A stretch of 64,000 bases of DNA from Vicinamibacteria bacterium (GTDB lineage: Bacteria > Acidobacteriota > Vicinamibacteria > Marinacidobacterales > Marinacidobacteraceae), in the NCBI GenBank assembly GCA_963422395.1, contig OY729431.1:416001-480000 (forward strand), written 5' to 3'. How positions within the stretch are numbered: the stretch's first letter is position 1; the number at the start of each line of letters is the position of its first letter. This document shows, one piece after another, positions 5,534 to 11,799 of the stretch. The translations under genes and the position numbers were made by a program. The notes beneath the pieces are model-generated. The model searched no databases, was not told the origin of the DNA, and saw nothing but the letters and a program-made list of their open reading frames with translations.

Positions 5534-6223
5534 ATGGAAATCCACCACATCTCGGCCCTCTCGCACTGGATCGAGGCATGGTTCCATGTCCATCCGCCGG
5601 ACCACCTGGTCATGGCGGTCTTCTGCGCGTTCCTGCTCTCCGGGTTCGCGATCTTCTTCCGCCGCCGCATCTCGGTGGAGAACCCCGGACGGGTGCAGTT
5701 GGTGCTCGAAGCGTTGGTCGGCGGGCTCCTCGCCCTGCTCCGGGACAATGTCGGCGCGAAGGGGCGGCCCTTCCTCGGCCTCGTCGGCACCCTCGCGCTG
5801 TTCATCCTGGTGAGCAACCTGTTCGGGCTGGTGCCGTTCTTCTCTTCGCCCACGGTCAGCATCAACATGCCGGTGGGCTGCGCACTGGTCGCCTTCCTCT
5901 ACTACAACTTCCAGGGGATCCGGGAGCACGGCGCGAAGAAGTACTTCGCGCACTTCCTGGGACCGAGCCCGTACCTCGCGGTCGTGATGCTCCCCATCGA
6001 AATCATCAGCCATCTGAGCCGCATCCTCTCGCTGTCGGTCCGGCTCTTCGGAAACATCTTCGGCGAAGAGCTCGTGGTGGTGGTGTTCGCCTTCCTGGTG
6101 CCCTTCGTGGTGCCGGTGCCGATGATGGCCTTCGGGGTCTTCGGCAGCACGCTGCAGGCGTTCGTGTTCACCATGCTCACCGTCATCTACCTCGGCGGCG
6201 CGGTCGCCGCGGAAGAACACTGA
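5534..6223 (+). CDS. atpB: F0F1 ATP synthase subunit a
   Basis: PIEIISHLSRILSLSVRLFGNI and LQAFVFTMLTVIYL motifs. Confidence 0.95.
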   Translation: MEIHHISALSHWIEAWFHVHPPDHLVMAVFCAFLLSGFAIFFRRRISVENPGRVQLVLEALVGGLLALLRDNVGAKGRPFLGLVGTLALFILVSNLFGLVPFFSSPTVSINMPVGCALVAFLYYNFQGIREHGAKKYFAHFLGPSPYLAVVMLPIEIISHLSRILSLSVRLFGNIFGEELVVVVFAFLVPFVVPVPMMAFGVFGSTLQAFVFTMLTVIYLGGAVAAEEH

Positions 6224-6258: not shown

Positions 6259-6582
6259 GTGCCCAACAAGCTTCGGACGACCCTGCTGGCCGTCTTCGGC
6301 GTCCTCGCCGCCGTCCCGGCCTTCGCCCAGGGAACCTGGGATCCGGTGGTGAGCCAGTGGGCGCTGATCTCGGCCGGCGGAGCGATCGCCATCGCCGCCG
6401 CCTTCGGCGCCACCGCTCAGGGACGCGCCGTCGTCGGCGCCTGCGAGGGCCTCGCCCGGAATCCCGGTGCGGCGCCGCAGATCCGGTTCTCGCTGCTCCT
6501 CGGACTGGTGCTGATCGAGTCGCTCGTCATCTACGCTTTCGTCACCGCGCTCATCATCTTCTTCGTCCTCTGGAACGGGTAA
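6259..6582 (+). CDS. atpE: F0F1 ATP synthase subunit c with N-terminal signal-like extension
   Basis: GTG at 6259 after AAGGAG RBS; ARNP loop; LIESLVIY carries the essential Glu. Confidence 0.92.
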   Translation: MPNKLRTTLLAVFGVLAAVPAFAQGTWDPVVSQWALISAGGAIAIAAAFGATAQGRAVVGACEGLARNPGAAPQIRFSLLLGLVLIESLVIYAFVTALIIFFVLWNG

Positions 6583-6601
6583 GGGCACAGGGCCCTTCCG
6601 G

Positions 6602-7147
6602 TTGGGAGCGCACCGGGCCGCCCCGGGATACACGGTGTTCGGGCAGGAGCCGAGCTCCCGGGCCGGTCATCCGGCGGTCCCGGACAGCGAAAGAAGCGGG
6701 TCGCGGCCAGCCGCGGTCTGGGTGATCCGTGCCGACGGCGGGAAGTACACCGACCGTTTCGTCGCCGGCGGCTTTGCGGCGGTCGGAGGTGCGTTGGATA
6801 TTTCTTCCTGTGCGAGCCGCGCCGAGATCCGGCACTGCTACGAGCGGGCGTATCCGGAGGCGAGCCCCGCCCAGGTCGGTAGCGCCCTGGGCAACTTCGC
6901 CGCGTTTCTTCTCGAGATGCGCGAGGGCGATCATGTGATCACGCCGACCGCCGACCGGGGCTCGCTGCGCTATGGCTGCATCGCCGGACCTCCGGTGTTC
7001 GTCCGGGGGGATGACGGCTGTCCGCATCGGACGGAACCGCCGAGCCGTTTCGTGGGACCCGGCCCCGCTCCTCCGGTCCGCTTTCCCCGAATCGCTGCAG
7101 AACACCCTCGGCTCGACGAGAGCGGTCTTCCGCATCCAGCACCCTGA
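6602..7147 (+). pseudogene. Mrr-N-like (restriction-system-associated) domain, the frameshifted N-terminus of the downstream DUF262 protein
   Basis: VWVIRADGGKY..FVAGGFAAVG..EMREGDHVITP..RYG..DDGCPHR; the domain continues as RNRRAVSW..LQNTLGSTRAVFRI in the 6972 frame; CGGA duplication at 7028-7035. Confidence 0.65.
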
Positions 7148-8408
7148 GCCGTTCCTGGAAACGATCGGGGGAACCATCGGGGAGGTTCGATTGTCGACGG
7201 CGGAAGAAACGGCGCTTCCCGGCCGACGGCCGGCACCAGCAGCCGTCGCCGCGGCAGGCGATCCGCAAGGGCCGGAACCGGACCTCCCCGAGAAGCCCGA
7301 GGTGGGAGTGGGGGCCGCAGAGGAAGACGGCGTCGAAACCGAGCGGGGGGACGAGGGCGTGGACGAGCATCCGTTCGATCCTTCGAAGATCAGAGTCCGC
7401 ACCGTTTCCGTGGTCGTGGAGCAGTTGATCTCCCGCATCCACCACCAGGAGATCGATCTGGCCCCGGACTTCCAGCGGATGGCCGGAATCTGGACCGCGG
7501 AACAGAAGAGCCGCCTCATCGAGTCGCTGCTGCTGCGTATCCCGATCCCGGTTTTCTATGTGGCCGCCGATGCCGACGAGAACTGGGCGGTGGTCGACGG
7601 GGTCCAGCGGATTTCCACGATCTATGACTATGCGAAAGGCGAGTTCCCGTTGACCCGGCTCGAATACCGCCGGGAGCTGATCGGCAAGCACCATGAAGAG
7701 CTGCCGCGGCCGATGCAGCGCCGGATCAGCGAGACGCAGATGGTCGTGAATGTCATCGAGCCCGGCACCCCGCCGGAGGTGATGTTCAACATCTTTCGCC
7801 GGATCAACACCGGAGGGATGGCGCTCAACGGCCAGGAGATCCGACACGCGCTCCACCGCGGCCCGGTTCGGGATTACCTGAAACAGCTGGCCGTCTCCGA
7901 AGCGTTCCGAAGAGCGACGGACGGGTCGGTGAAGCCGGATCGGATGAAGGACCGGGAATGCGTCCTTCGATTCCTCGCCTTCCATCTCCAGCGGTGGGAG
8001 GACTACTCCGCTCAGTCGATCGATAGTCACCTTTCGGCGACGATGAAGGCGATCAACACCATGTCGTCCTCCAGGAGAGATGAAATCGCGGCGGACTTCG
8101 ACCGCGCCATGGAGGCTGCGTTCGGGATCTTCGGAGAACGCGCCTTCAGAAGAATGACCAGGAAGGCCATTCGCCGCCGTCCTGTCAACATGCCTCTGCT
8201 CGAGGCGTGGTCGGTGCAACTGGCGCGCTGTTCGGACGCTGCGCTGCGCCGTCTCGAGGCCCGCCGCGATGAGGTGAATGCCCGGTTCGAAGCTCTGCTG
8301 AGGCAGGATGCGGAATTCGAGAAGGCGATCTCTTCGTCCACCGGCACCCGGAAGCGGATCCGGACCCGCTTCGCCGCCATCCGCGACCTGGTGGAGGAAC
8401 TCGTCTGA
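6972..8408 (+). CDS. DUF262 (ParB/GmrS-like) protein, Menshen NsnA-like; true start uncertain
   Basis: DUF262 motifs PDFQR, SRLIESLLLRIPIP, VVDGVQR, IFRRINTGG; in-frame GTG at 7359 could serve as an internal start. Confidence 0.85.
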   Translation: MAASPDLRCSSGGMTAVRIGRNRRAVSWDPAPLLRSAFPESLQNTLGSTRAVFRIQHPEPFLETIGGTIGEVRLSTAEETALPGRRPAPAAVAAAGDPQGPEPDLPEKPEVGVGAAEEDGVETERGDEGVDEHPFDPSKIRVRTVSVVVEQLISRIHHQEIDLAPDFQRMAGIWTAEQKSRLIESLLLRIPIPVFYVAADADENWAVVDGVQRISTIYDYAKGEFPLTRLEYRRELIGKHHEELPRPMQRRISETQMVVNVIEPGTPPEVMFNIFRRINTGGMALNGQEIRHALHRGPVRDYLKQLAVSEAFRRATDGSVKPDRMKDRECVLRFLAFHLQRWEDYSAQSIDSHLSATMKAINTMSSSRRDEIAADFDRAMEAAFGIFGERAFRRMTRKAIRRRPVNMPLLEAWSVQLARCSDAALRRLEARRDEVNARFEALLRQDAEFEKAISSSTGTRKRIRTRFAAIRDLVEELV

Positions 8409-9532
8409 TGCTGCGCGGGCTCGGAATCACGAACTTCAAGTGCTTCGCGGAGCTCGACCTCCGCTGCGCGCCGCTGAACCTCCTCTGCGGTCTGAACGGG
8501 ATGGGCAAGAGCAGCGTCATCCAGGCGCTGCTGGTGTTGCGGCAGTCGTTTCAGTCGGGCCACCTCCAGAAAGGGCGGCTGGTGCTCGGCGGCGGCCTGG
8601 TGGACCTCGGGGCAGGCGCCGATGTCCTGTTCGAGGACGCCCCCGAGGAGGAGATCGGGTTCCGGCTCGGGTTCGTCGAACCCACTGTTTCCTGGCAACG
8701 ATCCTTTCGCTATTCGCGCACCGGCGATCAGCTGGCTCCCGTCGAGGCCGCCGAGGGGGCTGGCGAGGGGGTGCCGGAGGTGTTGGCGGTCTTCCCGCCG
8801 TACGGCGGGCGCCTCGCCCATGTCCCGGCGGAGCGGGTCGGGCCGCAGAAGTTCTACCCGCTGTCGAAGATCGCGGCCGAACGGGGCGAGTTCGGGGAAC
8901 GAGGCGAGCTCGCCTGGAATCTGCTCAGCGAGCGCCAGGACGAGCAGCTGCTGGTGGACGATCCGCGCCGCGGCGGCGCCCCCGGGCGACGGTTGGCGGA
9001 CATCCTGGACCACTGGCTGCAAGATGTGAGCCCCGGCGCGCATCTGGGGCTTCGCTCCCTGACCGACGCCGATGCGGTGATCGCCGGTTTCTCCTTCGAT
9101 CGTCCGGGCGATGTCCCGACGCGCCGGTTTCGCGCCACGAATGTCGGTTTCGGGCTCTCGTACGCGGTGCCGGTCGTGCTGGCTCTCCTCTCTCCCGCCG
9201 GCACGCTCTGCCTGATAGAGAATCCGGAGGCGCATCTCCATCCGCGCGGACAGACGAAGCTCGCGGAGCTCGCGGCCCGTGCGGCGCTCGCGGGCGTGCA
9301 GGTGTTCGCCGAGACCCACAGCGATCACTTTCTGGACGGAGTGCGGATCGCTGTTCGGAACGGCCTGATCACGCCTGCTGAAATCGCGGTCCACTACTTC
9401 GAGCGCGACGGTGGACGCACGATGGTCTCCTCGCCGGAAATCGATCCCGACGGACGCCTGTCCCACTGGCCGAACGGCTTCTTCGACCAGCACGAGGAAA
9501 ACCTGGCGCGATTGCTGGCGCCCCGAACCTGA
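8408..9532 (+). CDS. AAA ATPase with C-terminal DUF3696, Menshen NsnB-like
   Basis: ITNFKCF, GLNGMGKSS Walker A, NVGFGLSY, IENPEAHLHP, ETHSDH, WPNGFFDQ; start overlaps the previous stop (TGATG). Confidence 0.88.
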   Translation: MLRGLGITNFKCFAELDLRCAPLNLLCGLNGMGKSSVIQALLVLRQSFQSGHLQKGRLVLGGGLVDLGAGADVLFEDAPEEEIGFRLGFVEPTVSWQRSFRYSRTGDQLAPVEAAEGAGEGVPEVLAVFPPYGGRLAHVPAERVGPQKFYPLSKIAAERGEFGERGELAWNLLSERQDEQLLVDDPRRGGAPGRRLADILDHWLQDVSPGAHLGLRSLTDADAVIAGFSFDRPGDVPTRRFRATNVGFGLSYAVPVVLALLSPAGTLCLIENPEAHLHPRGQTKLAELAARAALAGVQVFAETHSDHFLDGVRIAVRNGLITPAEIAVHYFERDGGRTMVSSPEIDPDGRLSHWPNGFFDQHEENLARLLAPRT

Positions 9533-9548
9533 CTTCTGTGGACCTGGC

Positions 9549-10490
9549 TTGCGGGAGCTCGTCCTGAACCACGCGAGCCTGCGGGCTTGCGGGTTCCCCG
9601 AGGCGGCGGCCCTGCTGCCGGATCTGGTGGTCGGGATGGCGGAGCTCGTCCGTAATCGGGCAGCGCAGTCCGTGCTGCGGATGGTCCGCTCGGTCTCGGA
9701 GATTCGATTGCAGGGCGGAGAGTCGCTGTGGGACGCCTTTCTCGAAATGAAGCGGCAGGGGGCGCGGGATCAGTACGTCTTTCTCATGCGGCTCGGCCAG
9801 AAGGCGCCGCTGCTGAACGGTCTCGCCCCGGCAGTCACTGCTCGATTCCGGTCGTGCGAGGCAAAGAGGTTGCCGCCAGAGGACGGCGAGTCCCTTCTCC
9901 TCTGCGCGCTCACCGACTCGATTGCGGTCAGTTTGCCGTCGGAGCCCGACTGGGATCACGACCGCCTCGGGGTGCAGTTCCACGAGCTGTTGTCCGACGC
10001 GAGCATCGGCGATGCCGAGGAGGAGATCGACAATCTCGCCCGGTCTGGACATGCGAGCTGCATCGTCGAACGCTGGCGCGGGCAGTGCCGACGAAGTTGC
10101 GCAAGCCCTGCCGAGCTGTGGGGCCGCCGGGGGGAACTCTTTCCGCATCTGCTCTTCGGACCCGATGTGGAAGACCAGCTCGCCGAGCTGAACGCCGGCT
10201 GGTTACAGACCGTCCTCAACCGGCTGGGGGCACTCGACGAAGCGGCGGAGGCGTGGGCACTGTCTGACGGCGCCGCGCCGCGGTGGAGGTGCAAAGTGAC
10301 GCCCGAGAGCGACCGGGTGATGGGAAACCCGAAACTCCGGGAGGCGAGGTCCTTTCGGTCGGTCGGCGGAGAGCGGTTGCCGTTCGGTTGGCATGCGCGC
10401 TTCGGCAGCGGCGGCCGCATCCATCTGCGGTTCGACGCCGGCACGCGGGAGATCGAGATCGGCTACCTCGGACGGCATCTCCCGCTGTGA
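9549..10490 (+). CDS. Putative effector of the DUF262/DUF3696 system (NsnC-like; C-terminal RelE/colicin-D-like RNase fold inferred)
   Basis: Probable TTG start (LRELVLNHASL); C-terminal HARFGSGGRIHLRF...IGYLGRHLP; third gene of the operon. Confidence 0.65.
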   Translation: MRELVLNHASLRACGFPEAAALLPDLVVGMAELVRNRAAQSVLRMVRSVSEIRLQGGESLWDAFLEMKRQGARDQYVFLMRLGQKAPLLNGLAPAVTARFRSCEAKRLPPEDGESLLLCALTDSIAVSLPSEPDWDHDRLGVQFHELLSDASIGDAEEEIDNLARSGHASCIVERWRGQCRRSCASPAELWGRRGELFPHLLFGPDVEDQLAELNAGWLQTVLNRLGALDEAAEAWALSDGAAPRWRCKVTPESDRVMGNPKLREARSFRSVGGERLPFGWHARFGSGGRIHLRFDAGTREIEIGYLGRHLPL

Positions 10491-10620
10491 GCGCGGCGTG
10501 CGGCGTTCCGCAGAGCAGGCGGCGGGCGCACTGCTGGATTTCGGAGGAGGGTGTCCGGCGTCCGTGCCCGTCTCCCGGAGGTTCCGGGCCTGACGAAGGA
10601 CCCTGCGGAACCCCGGCGGG

Positions 10621-11799
10621 ATGCCCGAGAGAATGATCCGTCCGTTCCGGTGGGACTCCGGGAATCGGGTGCTCCATCTGCTCGACCAGCGCCGGCTGCC
10701 CCGCGAGGAGGTCTGGATCACCTGTCGGGAGGCAGCAGAGGTCGCCCGGGCGATCCGCGAGCTGGTCGTCCGCGGCGCCCCCGCCATCGGGATCGCCGCC
10801 GCCTACGCGGTGGTGCTCGGCTTCGCCCGCAGCTCCCGAAGCTCGCCCTCGGATCCAGGGCATCCCGTTGGGAAGGAGCTTCCGGCGGGCGAGCCGGCCT
10901 CGTCGGCCCGGTTCGATCGTTTCCTTCCGTTCGAGCGGTTCGAGAACCTCGCCGCTGCGCTGGAAAAGACCCGCCCCACTGCGGTCAACCTCGCCTTCGC
11001 GCTGGGCCGGATGCGCGTCCGGCTCGGCTCGCTGCGAAAGGCGCCCCCCGAAGCGGCATCCCCGGAAGGAGTCCTCCCGGAAATCGTTGCCGAACTCGAA
11101 GCGGAAGCAGACCGGATCGCCGCCGAAGACCTCGCGGCGAACCGGCGGCTCGGCGCGCTCGGCGCGGGCCTGCTCCCCGGAGGGCCGGGTCCGGCGCGCA
11201 TCCTCACCCACTGCAACGCCGGCGCGCTCGCTACCTCGGGCTACGGGACCGCGCTGGGCATCGTCCGGGCCGCCGCCGCTTTCGGCCGCCAGGTCGAGGT
11301 GTTCGCTCCCGAGACTCGGCCGTTCCTGCAAGGCGCGCGGCTCACCGCCTGGGAGCTCCTGGCCGACCGCATCCCGGTGACCCTGATGGCCGACGGTGCC
11401 GTTGGGTCCCTGTTCGCCTCGAGAAGACTCGACGCGGTGATCGTGGGCGCCGACCGGATCGCCCGAAACGGCGACACTGCGAACAAGATCGGCACCTATC
11501 CGGCGGCCGTCCTCGCCCAGGAGCACGGTGTCCCGTTCCTGGTCGCGGCGCCCTTTTCCAGCGTGGACCTCGAAACGCCGACCGGAGCGGAGATCCCCAT
11601 CGAGGAGCGGCCTGCCGAGGAGGTCACCGAGATTTCGGGGAAGCCGATCGCGCCCGCCGGCGTACCGGTCTGGAATCCCGTCTTCGACATCACCCCGGCC
11701 CGCTTCCTGACCGCCATCGTGACGGAGCGCGGCATCGCCCGCCCGCCGTTCTCCGTGTCTCTCGCATCGCTCGCCCGCCTCGCATCGCGGGACCGTTGA
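10621..11799 (+). CDS. mtnA: S-methyl-5-thioribose-1-phosphate isomerase
   Basis: LLDQRRLP, VRGAPAIG, TRPTAVNL, ILTHCNAGALAT, ETRPFLQGARLTAWEL, GADRIARNGDTANKIGTY. Confidence 0.95.
   Translation: MPERMIRPFRWDSGNRVLHLLDQRRLPREEVWITCREAAEVARAIRELVVRGAPAIGIAAAYAVVLGFARSSRSSPSDPGHPVGKELPAGEPASSARFDRFLPFERFENLAAALEKTRPTAVNLAFALGRMRVRLGSLRKAPPEAASPEGVLPEIVAELEAEADRIAAEDLAANRRLGALGAGLLPGGPGPARILTHCNAGALATSGYGTALGIVRAAAAFGRQVEVFAPETRPFLQGARLTAWELLADRIPVTLMADGAVGSLFASRRLDAVIVGADRIARNGDTANKIGTYPAAVLAQEHGVPFLVAAPFSSVDLETPTGAEIPIEERPAEEVTEISGKPIAPAGVPVWNPVFDITPARFLTAIVTERGIARPPFSVSLASLARLASRDR

Follow-up and report, generated by a model that had tools for sequence, protein, structure and literature searches.

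A Menshen (NsnABC) operon of a Vicinamibacteria bacterium whose NsnA carries an EVE/YTH-like PUA domain interrupted by a 4-bp duplication

Three closely spaced genes lie between an atpE-like and an mtnA-like gene at positions 6602 to 10490 of the window, the whole stretch of 64,000 nucleotides analysed here from the genome of a Vicinamibacteria bacterium (Acidobacteriota; assembly GCA_963422395.1, contig OY729431.1). The initial annotation, made from the sequence alone, read them as an anti-phage operon of the Menshen type whose DUF262 protein, NsnA, has an additional Mrr-N-like sensor domain at its amino terminus, an architecture that it did not know as described. The locus thus raises the question of what this additional domain is, whether its fusion to DUF262 is natural, and what is left of it in this genome. 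We strongly favour the explanation that the locus is a Type II Menshen cassette with a three-part sensor protein NsnA, whose reader domain has been inactivated here by a 4-bp duplication.

Genes of the operon and their identity

The locus is a three-gene Menshen (NsnABC) operon, because PADLOC profiles are matched over nearly their full length by NsnA (5.2e-138, profile positions 21-382 of 385), NsnB (5.6e-98, full length) and NsnC (PDLC03879, 1.7e-60, positions 4-304 of 305), and Pfam adds GmrSD_N, AAA_15 and DUF3696. These matches and the flanking genes agree with the placement and coordinates first proposed, and the motif strings quoted at that time are present in the sequence. No operon protein gives an NCBIfam match above the cut-offs. 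The genes follow each other in the order A-B-C on one strand; the ATG of nsnB overlaps the stop codon of nsnA (ATGA, 8405-8408) and a spacer of 16 nt separates nsnB from nsnC (9532 to 9549).

The nsnA gene is split. Its first piece (6602..7147, forward strand) is an open reading frame (ORF) of 181 codons without Pfam or NCBIfam match, recognised by positions 3-113 of the PADLOC profile PDC-S02 and by alignment to intact homologues. Residues ~37-143 of its product are the first two thirds of a PUA-like domain and residues 144-181 form a 38-residue tail that is out of frame. The second piece (6972..8408, forward strand), one frame over, encodes 478 residues that comprise the last third of the PUA domain, a linker, a ParB-DUF262 domain (about 7419-7856) and a C-terminal helical domain. 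It is identified by its NsnA match and by Pfam GmrSD_N/DUF262 (1.2e-20, residues 150-295), and its translation has the NsnA motifs DGVQR and FRRIN. The genome's own gene call starts nsnA at the ATG at 7011 (P0008, 465 aa), so that the 465-aa DUF262 protein of the annotation corresponds to the tail end of a gene that is broken.

The nsnB gene (8408..9532, forward strand) codes for a 374-residue ABC-type ATPase with a DUF3696 tail, as indicated by Pfam AAA_21, AAA_15 (6.3e-19) and DUF3696 (1.3e-15). It has the Walker A motif GLNGMGKS and the sequence LIENPE, the EN variant of Walker B that is described for Menshen (PMC12065111). The nsnC gene (9549..10490, forward strand) codes for the predicted effector, 313 residues long. 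Its frame is open from 9411 to 10490 and the likely start is the TTG at 9549; the genome's own call (P0161) likewise gives 313 aa. Both nsnB and nsnC are full length; since nsnA is split, not all three Menshen genes are intact. The operon also differs from two related classes of defence genes: in NsnA Pfam finds GmrSD_N alone, without the DUF1524/HNH nuclease domain of GmrSD, and it finds in the window's proteins no Mrr_cat, which in PDC-S02 shares one protein of about 320 aa with the N-terminal domain.

NsnC is 52-61% identical to its counterparts in six homologous operons. The C-terminal block WHAR.G...RIHLRF...EIGY.G.HLP is invariant in all seven aligned sequences, as are residues H282, R284, R290, H292, R294 and H310. 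According to Li, Tan, Basu, Corbett and Zhang (Nucleic Acids Research, NAR, 2025; PMC12065111), NsnC proteins combine an inactive N-terminal PIN domain with a C-terminal nuclease, in many cases a BECR RNase whose residue set is His-Arg-His. The BECR class has an alpha plus four-stranded beta fold and a His/Arg catalytic set. The invariant His and Arg residues of the window's NsnC are compatible with such a set, and the protein is a putative RNase. Among its 723 homologues, none of the best 120 contains a Pfam family. In the protein atlas NsnC leads to unnamed clusters and, weakly, to one cluster (score 0.90) where YoeB_toxin is carried by 15% of the members.

Fold, partners and possible role of the N-terminal domain

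The coding region of the N-terminal domain (N-domain) extends over positions 6710..7166 of the forward strand, in two frames, as delimited by a homologue model, fold matches and alignment. The acidic, Pro-rich linker described in the initial annotation is visible by eye in the sequence that follows (7167..7322, forward strand) and is probably disordered, judging from its sequence and from the low confidence of the homologue model in this segment; its length varies among homologues. For database queries the break was read through by taking the word TGTC, which is unique, as one residue (TGTC=C). The resulting query has four wrong residues, RIGR for PHR, and is one residue longer. A read-through at CGGA=R was dropped, that word occurring 11 times in frame.

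For the homologue P0010, AlphaFold2 modelling from an alignment of 92 sequences gives a predicted local distance difference test score (pLDDT) of about 97 over residues 27-180 and of 57-62 in the linker; the single-sequence model of the same protein reaches only 39.5. The predicted domain is an alpha/beta barrel of PUA type with no winged helix. In a VIA-align search against representatives, in which all matches span model residues 24-179, the best hits are PH1033 (1wmm; Z 10.4, 118 aa, 2.8 Å) and the EVE domain of VcaM4I (6yex; Z 10.1, 124 aa, 3.3 Å), followed by YTH domains (Z 7.8-9.5), an ASCH domain (Z 7.2), THYN1 with 5-methylcytosine (5mC) DNA (Z 7.0) and the McrB N-terminal domains of T. 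gammatolerans (Z 6.2) and S. marinus (Z 6.1). Foldseek ranks the same proteins highest, VcaM4I first (E 5.5e-4), then YTH and EVE-type proteins. By its modelled fold the N-domain is a member of the PUA superfamily, EVE/YTH-like, that forms a family of its own at the sequence level. The additional domain is thus real, as the confident model and the PDC-S02 match indicate, and has the fold of modified-base readers. Pfam Mrr_N (PF14338), a winged helix, was rejected, with no match at E<=0.1 or E<=1 and a barrel in place of its fold, so that the term Mrr-N-like holds for the company of the domain, which is found beside Mrr_cat, and fails as a family assignment.

This company was assessed from an exhaustive phmmer search with the fragment P0010, which returned 1386 representatives at E<=0.001, of which 221 reach E<=1e-10. 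In the best 90 of the 1386, Pfam finds Mrr_cat in 28, McrB-like AAA_5 in ten, GmrSD_N in five, HEPN_Swt1 in two and DUF900 in two, whereas NERD with a kinase, RhuM, sigma-70 region 4, DUF433 and DUF2442 occur once each; the remaining 38, mostly short proteins, have no Pfam family. A second scan finds Mrr_cat in 44 of 92 family members. The domain therefore does occur N-terminal to Mrr-family nucleases, as had been proposed.

Intact fusions to DUF262 are found elsewhere. Six metagenomic proteins of 580-661 aa combine N-domain and DUF262 on one chain and share with the window's read-through 57-59% identity overall and 51-60% in the N-domain. Their precomputed annotation is PF28530 plus PF03235, PF28530 being a separate, newer family. 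When one genome per species was scanned with aligned NsnA-type N-domains as query, 17 loci were returned. Ten are NsnA-type copies in metagenome-assembled genomes (MAGs) of Acidobacteriota; the other seven, mostly in Chloroflexota MAGs, have the N-domain without DUF262. Five of the ten (L011, L012, L014, L016 and L018) have a single ORF across both domains, followed by nsnB and nsnC. The other five are damaged, each in its own way: L010 has a frameshift within DUF262, L009 lacks nsnB and about 40% of NsnA (the C-terminal ~250 residues), L015 has lost residues 235-400 in frame and has truncated nsnB and nsnC, only the N-domain remains in L013, and in L017 a 1-nt deletion lies ~20 nt downstream of the position of the window's duplication. 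The PUA-DUF262 fusion is accordingly a natural, conserved architecture in other lineages. The fusion proposed for this locus is confirmed as an architecture, in six proteins and five operons; in the window itself the fusion gene is broken.

Closer relatives of the window's genome give a different picture. Among 40 that were searched, including G033, which has no match, none has the PUA-DUF262 fusion. Four have a homologue of the DUF262 part (50-62% identity), whose match starts at query residue 199 or later, without N-domain, and eight have the N-domain alone (25-31% identity). An in-frame ORF upstream in the relative G006 (L002) was considered as a sensor domain and rejected, as it is a Peptidase_S9 gene. 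A maximum-likelihood tree of 19 DUF262 parts leaves 11 of 16 inner branches without resolution, and neither shows nor refutes a single clade of fused forms.

The homologues vary in length at two other places. In P0002-P0004, L011 (about 6531-6903) and L014 (about 6480-6723) the PUA-like domain is separated from DUF262 by an extra insert of ~60-100 aa, which may be a further small domain; its conserved stretch starts with RPLPGT and ends with YYRWKQHHD. The NsnB proteins of L010 (8019-8278), L011 (8327-8577) and L014 (8228-8472) have, relative to the window's NsnB, an insertion of ~80 aa after about residue 100.

The architecture is not new, as PUA-DUF262 Menshen architectures are already described in the literature. 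In their analysis of 1997 Menshen systems, Li et al. (PMC12065111) define as Type II the systems with an additional domain at the N-terminus of NsnA, a feature of 23% of NsnA proteins. The N-terminal domains belong to at least 33 families, including Mrr_N, inactive REase, B3, frataxin-like, PS-PUA1 and PS-PUA2, and are proposed to sense phage DNA, modified bases included. The family found here may correspond to PS-PUA1, to PS-PUA2 or to neither of them.

How the intact form could act is suggested by the model that Li et al. (2025) propose and by analogy with the way PUA-nuclease fusions behave. NsnA would combine the EVE/YTH-like PUA domain and the disordered acidic linker with a ParB-DUF262 NTPase whose C-terminal helical domain binds DNA. 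Binding of the PUA domain to a modified base in incoming phage DNA would recruit, position or activate NsnA, NsnA would stimulate the ABC ATPase NsnB, and NsnB would release or activate the effector NsnC, probably an RNase, so that either the infected cell or the phage would be arrested. Such a system would couple a modified-DNA reader in the style of type IV restriction to an effector of the abortive-infection type through a ParB/ABC-ATPase relay. With phages of defined DNA modification, it would offer a convenient natural case for testing the sensor-transducer-effector scheme that Li et al. (2025) put forward. Since this PUA-like family is large and recurs in Mrr_cat, McrB-like and HEPN proteins, knowledge of its specificity would also inform many predicted defence genes.

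Several results weigh against this reading. The Foldseek E-values are marginal (about 1e-3), with template modelling (TM) scores of 0.3-0.55. Neither the window's read-through nor four intact homologues match Pfam EVE, YTH, ASCH or Mrr_N at E<=1, and these families are outside the 25 commonest in the 92 family members. For want of such a match, it is the fold and the fusion partners that support the assignment to modified-base readers. On the effector side, NsnC has no Pfam match at E<=10, searches of the PDB with the single sequence and with a seven-sequence profile gave no meaningful match, and the protein atlas gave nothing for its C-terminal 86 residues.

The ligand is where a competing explanation is best sustained. 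The modelled PUA fold could instead read modified RNA, unmodified nucleic acid or a nucleotide signal, in which case the system would not depend on DNA modification. The YTH and ASCH relatives bind RNA, YTH being a reader of RNA, the partners include HEPN_Swt1 in two of the 90 proteins and in others a kinase, a hydrolase or sigma-70 region 4, and the characterised EVE and YTH families are not matched in sequence. The ligand could thus be RNA. Mrr_cat (28 of 90) and AAA_5 (10 of 90) nevertheless dominate the census, and it is with such partners that type IV restriction systems classically carry their readers of modified DNA (PMC7641849, PMC6765204, PMC7897488); the best structural matches moreover include DNA-bound readers of 5mC. 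A ligand of another kind is thus unlikely, though by no means negligible, and a modified base is what the predicted fold, together with the Mrr_cat and McrB-like partners, leads us to infer.

The duplication in nsnA and its alleles

The Type II Menshen cassette with a putative modified-base reader is damaged in the window at precisely that reader. Positions 7028..7035 (forward strand) carry the tandem duplication CGGA-CGGA, whose four extra bases shift the frame by +1 within the PUA-like domain; the sequence with the duplication at the break, as read in the window, is CGGACGGA. All ten aligned homologous loci are without the extra bases and the lesion is therefore a 4-bp tandem duplication. 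The N-domain is split over two frames: the first ORF matches profile positions 3-113 of PDC-S02 (PDLC04806) at 1.8e-25 and the second continues with positions 114-158 at 8.1e-09. The frame switch lies directly after CPHR, in keeping with the motif string of the initial annotation. The barrel loses the last ~50 of its ~155 residues, namely strand 133-139 (RNRRxVxW), a later strand and two helices. Lost with the RNRRxVxW strand is its Trp, which at least 90% of the 92 family members share. The position of the break, within the PUA domain and just before RNRRxVxW, argues that the putative modified-base reader is inactivated in this genome.

Contigs from four public sequencing runs of two studies were compared with the window over positions 6500-10600. 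An allele without the four letters at 7028 is present in all four runs, on one contig each. Its depth is 8.1 of a total of 31.1 at the site in run X1, 15.5 of 49.7 in X2, 117 of 117 in X4 and 6.5 of 14.9 in X5. In X1, X2 and X5 the rest of the depth covers the site with no indel listed, which is the window reading. The allele lacking the four bases is linked to five substitutions at 6971-7012, which in the first frame give Y124N, C126R, R135Q and D137E and zero stops. The intact allele thus lies on a sister haplotype, and the duplication is real and polymorphic. A reservation is that the sequencing platforms of the read sets are unrecorded and that the best-matching runs may represent the very sample used to assemble the genome, because of which the support for the duplication is not fully independent. 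The haplotype of run X5 also lacks 6 letters at window position 7304 (depth 10.1 of 10.1), a length polymorphism in the linker. No RNA run is among the sequencing runs listed for the locus.

The lesion is recent as well as polymorphic, for the operon is otherwise without damage and the frame is intact in a co-occurring haplotype. Sporadic loss of the sensor domain by pseudogenisation is described in Menshen (PMC12065111), and the intact and frameshifted alleles together provide a small field example of the turnover of defence genes. The nsnA fusion of the window is a remnant at best. In the favourable case a putative NsnA of 465-478 aa, started at an internal ATG and devoid of a working N-domain, could support a Type-I-like system; in the worst case the whole operon may be dead.

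Other sequences also deviate near the site of the duplication. In addition to the deletion in L017, the metagenomic fragments P0014, P0015 and P0021 diverge directly after NRR(A/S)V, and the stretch could be a mutational or a sequencing hotspot. The latter would suit the view that the frameshift is an artefact of assembly or sequencing and that the organism makes a full-length PUA-DUF262 NsnA: the same L017 deletion and divergent fragments may mark an error-prone stretch, and the allele without the four bases is present in every run. That allele is however another haplotype, with its five linked substitutions within 60 bp, and in three of the four runs the depth is mostly window-like (~23 of 31, 34 of 50 and 8 of 15). 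A clean 4-bp tandem duplication is also atypical for a basecalling error. An artefact is, on this evidence, very improbable. That the split is functional, either by cooperation of a PUA-fragment protein with an NsnA started at the internal ATG or by a +1 ribosomal frameshift that restores the fusion, is hardly credible, for although both pieces are open and undegraded and the genome's own gene call uses the ATG at 7011, the break lies inside the barrel and removes strands, helices and the conserved Trp, the first ORF ends with the 38-aa out-of-frame tail, ten of ten homologous loci and the co-occurring allele are without the extra bases, and no homologue has a two-gene arrangement at the break point.

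Taking the duplication as a real, recent lesion in a Type II cassette, one may speculate further that the PUA sensor of this Menshen lineage is repeatedly switched off since the reading of modified bases is costly, for instance through conflict with host methylation. This idea is suggested by the coexistence of intact and duplicated alleles within the same communities, by the independent 1-nt deletion in L017 and by the frameshifts or erosion in five of ten loci; we regard it as rather unlikely. Were it true, the operon would go on working in a Type-I-like manner with the remaining NsnA of 465-478 aa, the break would re-tune specificity instead of merely disabling the system, and it might revert by the loss of one copy of the repeat.

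Genomic setting and relation to known systems

The operon is a cassette of ~3.9 kb inserted between the atpE-like gene and mtnA. Upstream are atpB (5534-6223; ATP-synt_A, 7.1e-50) and the atpE-like gene (6330..6582, forward strand), assigned to the F0 c subunit by its position after atpB and supported by a homologous ORF beside mtnA in relatives. This ORF has no Pfam match at E<=0.001; it has an RNP loop and a Glu in LIESL, and its start is uncertain, the frame being open from 5578. Downstream is the mtnA-like gene of the IF-2B family (10621..11799, forward strand; PF01008, 4.6e-69), which is found in 24 of 25 genomes searched. Of the mtnA loci examined in 19 relatives, six have the atpE-like gene 52-237 bp upstream in the same orientation, three have it on the same strand but farther away, and in four the two genes are convergent; in the other six the stretch fetched has no atpE-like match. 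In the window the gap between the two genes is 4038 bp and is entirely occupied by the operon. The operon is flanked by no notable repeats, direct or inverted, and has no promoter-like sites; its terminator-like sites (4 against 2.6 expected) are within chance, and the sequence composition gives no clear island signal or step.

A second Menshen system, intact and of Type I, is located about 270 kb away in the same genome (L046, G000:C1:686000-698000). It has an NsnA of 362 aa (2e-116), an NsnB (5.6e-101) and the NsnC variant PDLC03896 (4.1e-100). With a PDC-S20 protein, a DUF262 protein similar to NsnA/PD-T4-2_A and a GajB-like helicase (2.6e-186) as neighbours, this locus looks like a defence island. 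The loss of nsnA at the locus studied here may be cheap because a complete Type I Menshen is present elsewhere in the genome.

Among characterised systems, the validated reference is the Type I Menshen of Solibacillus silvestris StLB046, for which Li et al. (PMC12065111) cite experimental support. The window's operon has the same three genes in the same order, and shares with it the NsnA motifs DGxQR and FxxxN and the EN variant of Walker B in NsnB; the NsnA of StLB046, unlike that of the window, has no N-terminal domain.

The modification-dependent restriction enzymes of the PUA superfamily, such as the EVE-HNH enzyme VcaM4I (6yex, PMC7897488) and the PUA/PD-(D/E)XK enzymes (PMC6765204), resemble NsnA in the succession of N-terminal reader, linker and effector module, at a sequence identity of about 10%. 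Their reader is fused to a nuclease, whereas here it is fused to a ParB-like NTPase and the effector is separate, reached through an ATPase. Bell et al. (2020; PMC7641849) report EVE/YTH-like domains fused to McrB and to nucleases of the PD-(D/E)XK type, as well as "rare fusions to GmrSD homologs". PADLOC's PDC-S02 (N-domain plus Mrr_cat, about 320 aa) has the same N-domain as NsnA. The match is confined to profile positions 3-158 of 324, the Mrr_cat half being replaced by DUF262 here. In the papers listed by a full-text literature search, PDC-S02 is mentioned 1 to 4 times each, and no functional study was seen among them. The McrB homologues with YTH/EVE-like N-domains of T. gammatolerans (6p0g) and S. 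marinus (6n0s) have a related fold, and differ from the operon in their motor and effector (McrBC). The type IV enzymes GmrSD and SspE (DUF262-DUF1524) share ParB-DUF262 (GmrSD_N) with NsnA, which unlike them has no DUF1524/HNH, the effector being encoded by a separate gene.

The closest relative is the Type II Menshen of Li et al. (PMC12065111), with which the locus shares the NsnA-NsnB-NsnC arrangement, an extra globular domain (~155 aa, here frameshifted) N-terminal to ParB-DUF262, and a predicted PUA-type fold of the kind proposed to read modified bases. The NsnC of these systems is described there as variable at its N-terminus and nuclease-like at its C-terminus. Unlike the described Type II systems, the operon of the window has its sensor broken by a 4-bp duplication. 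What is specific to it is the PDC-S02 family of its N-domain, the spread of this family in Acidobacteriota, and the broken gene.

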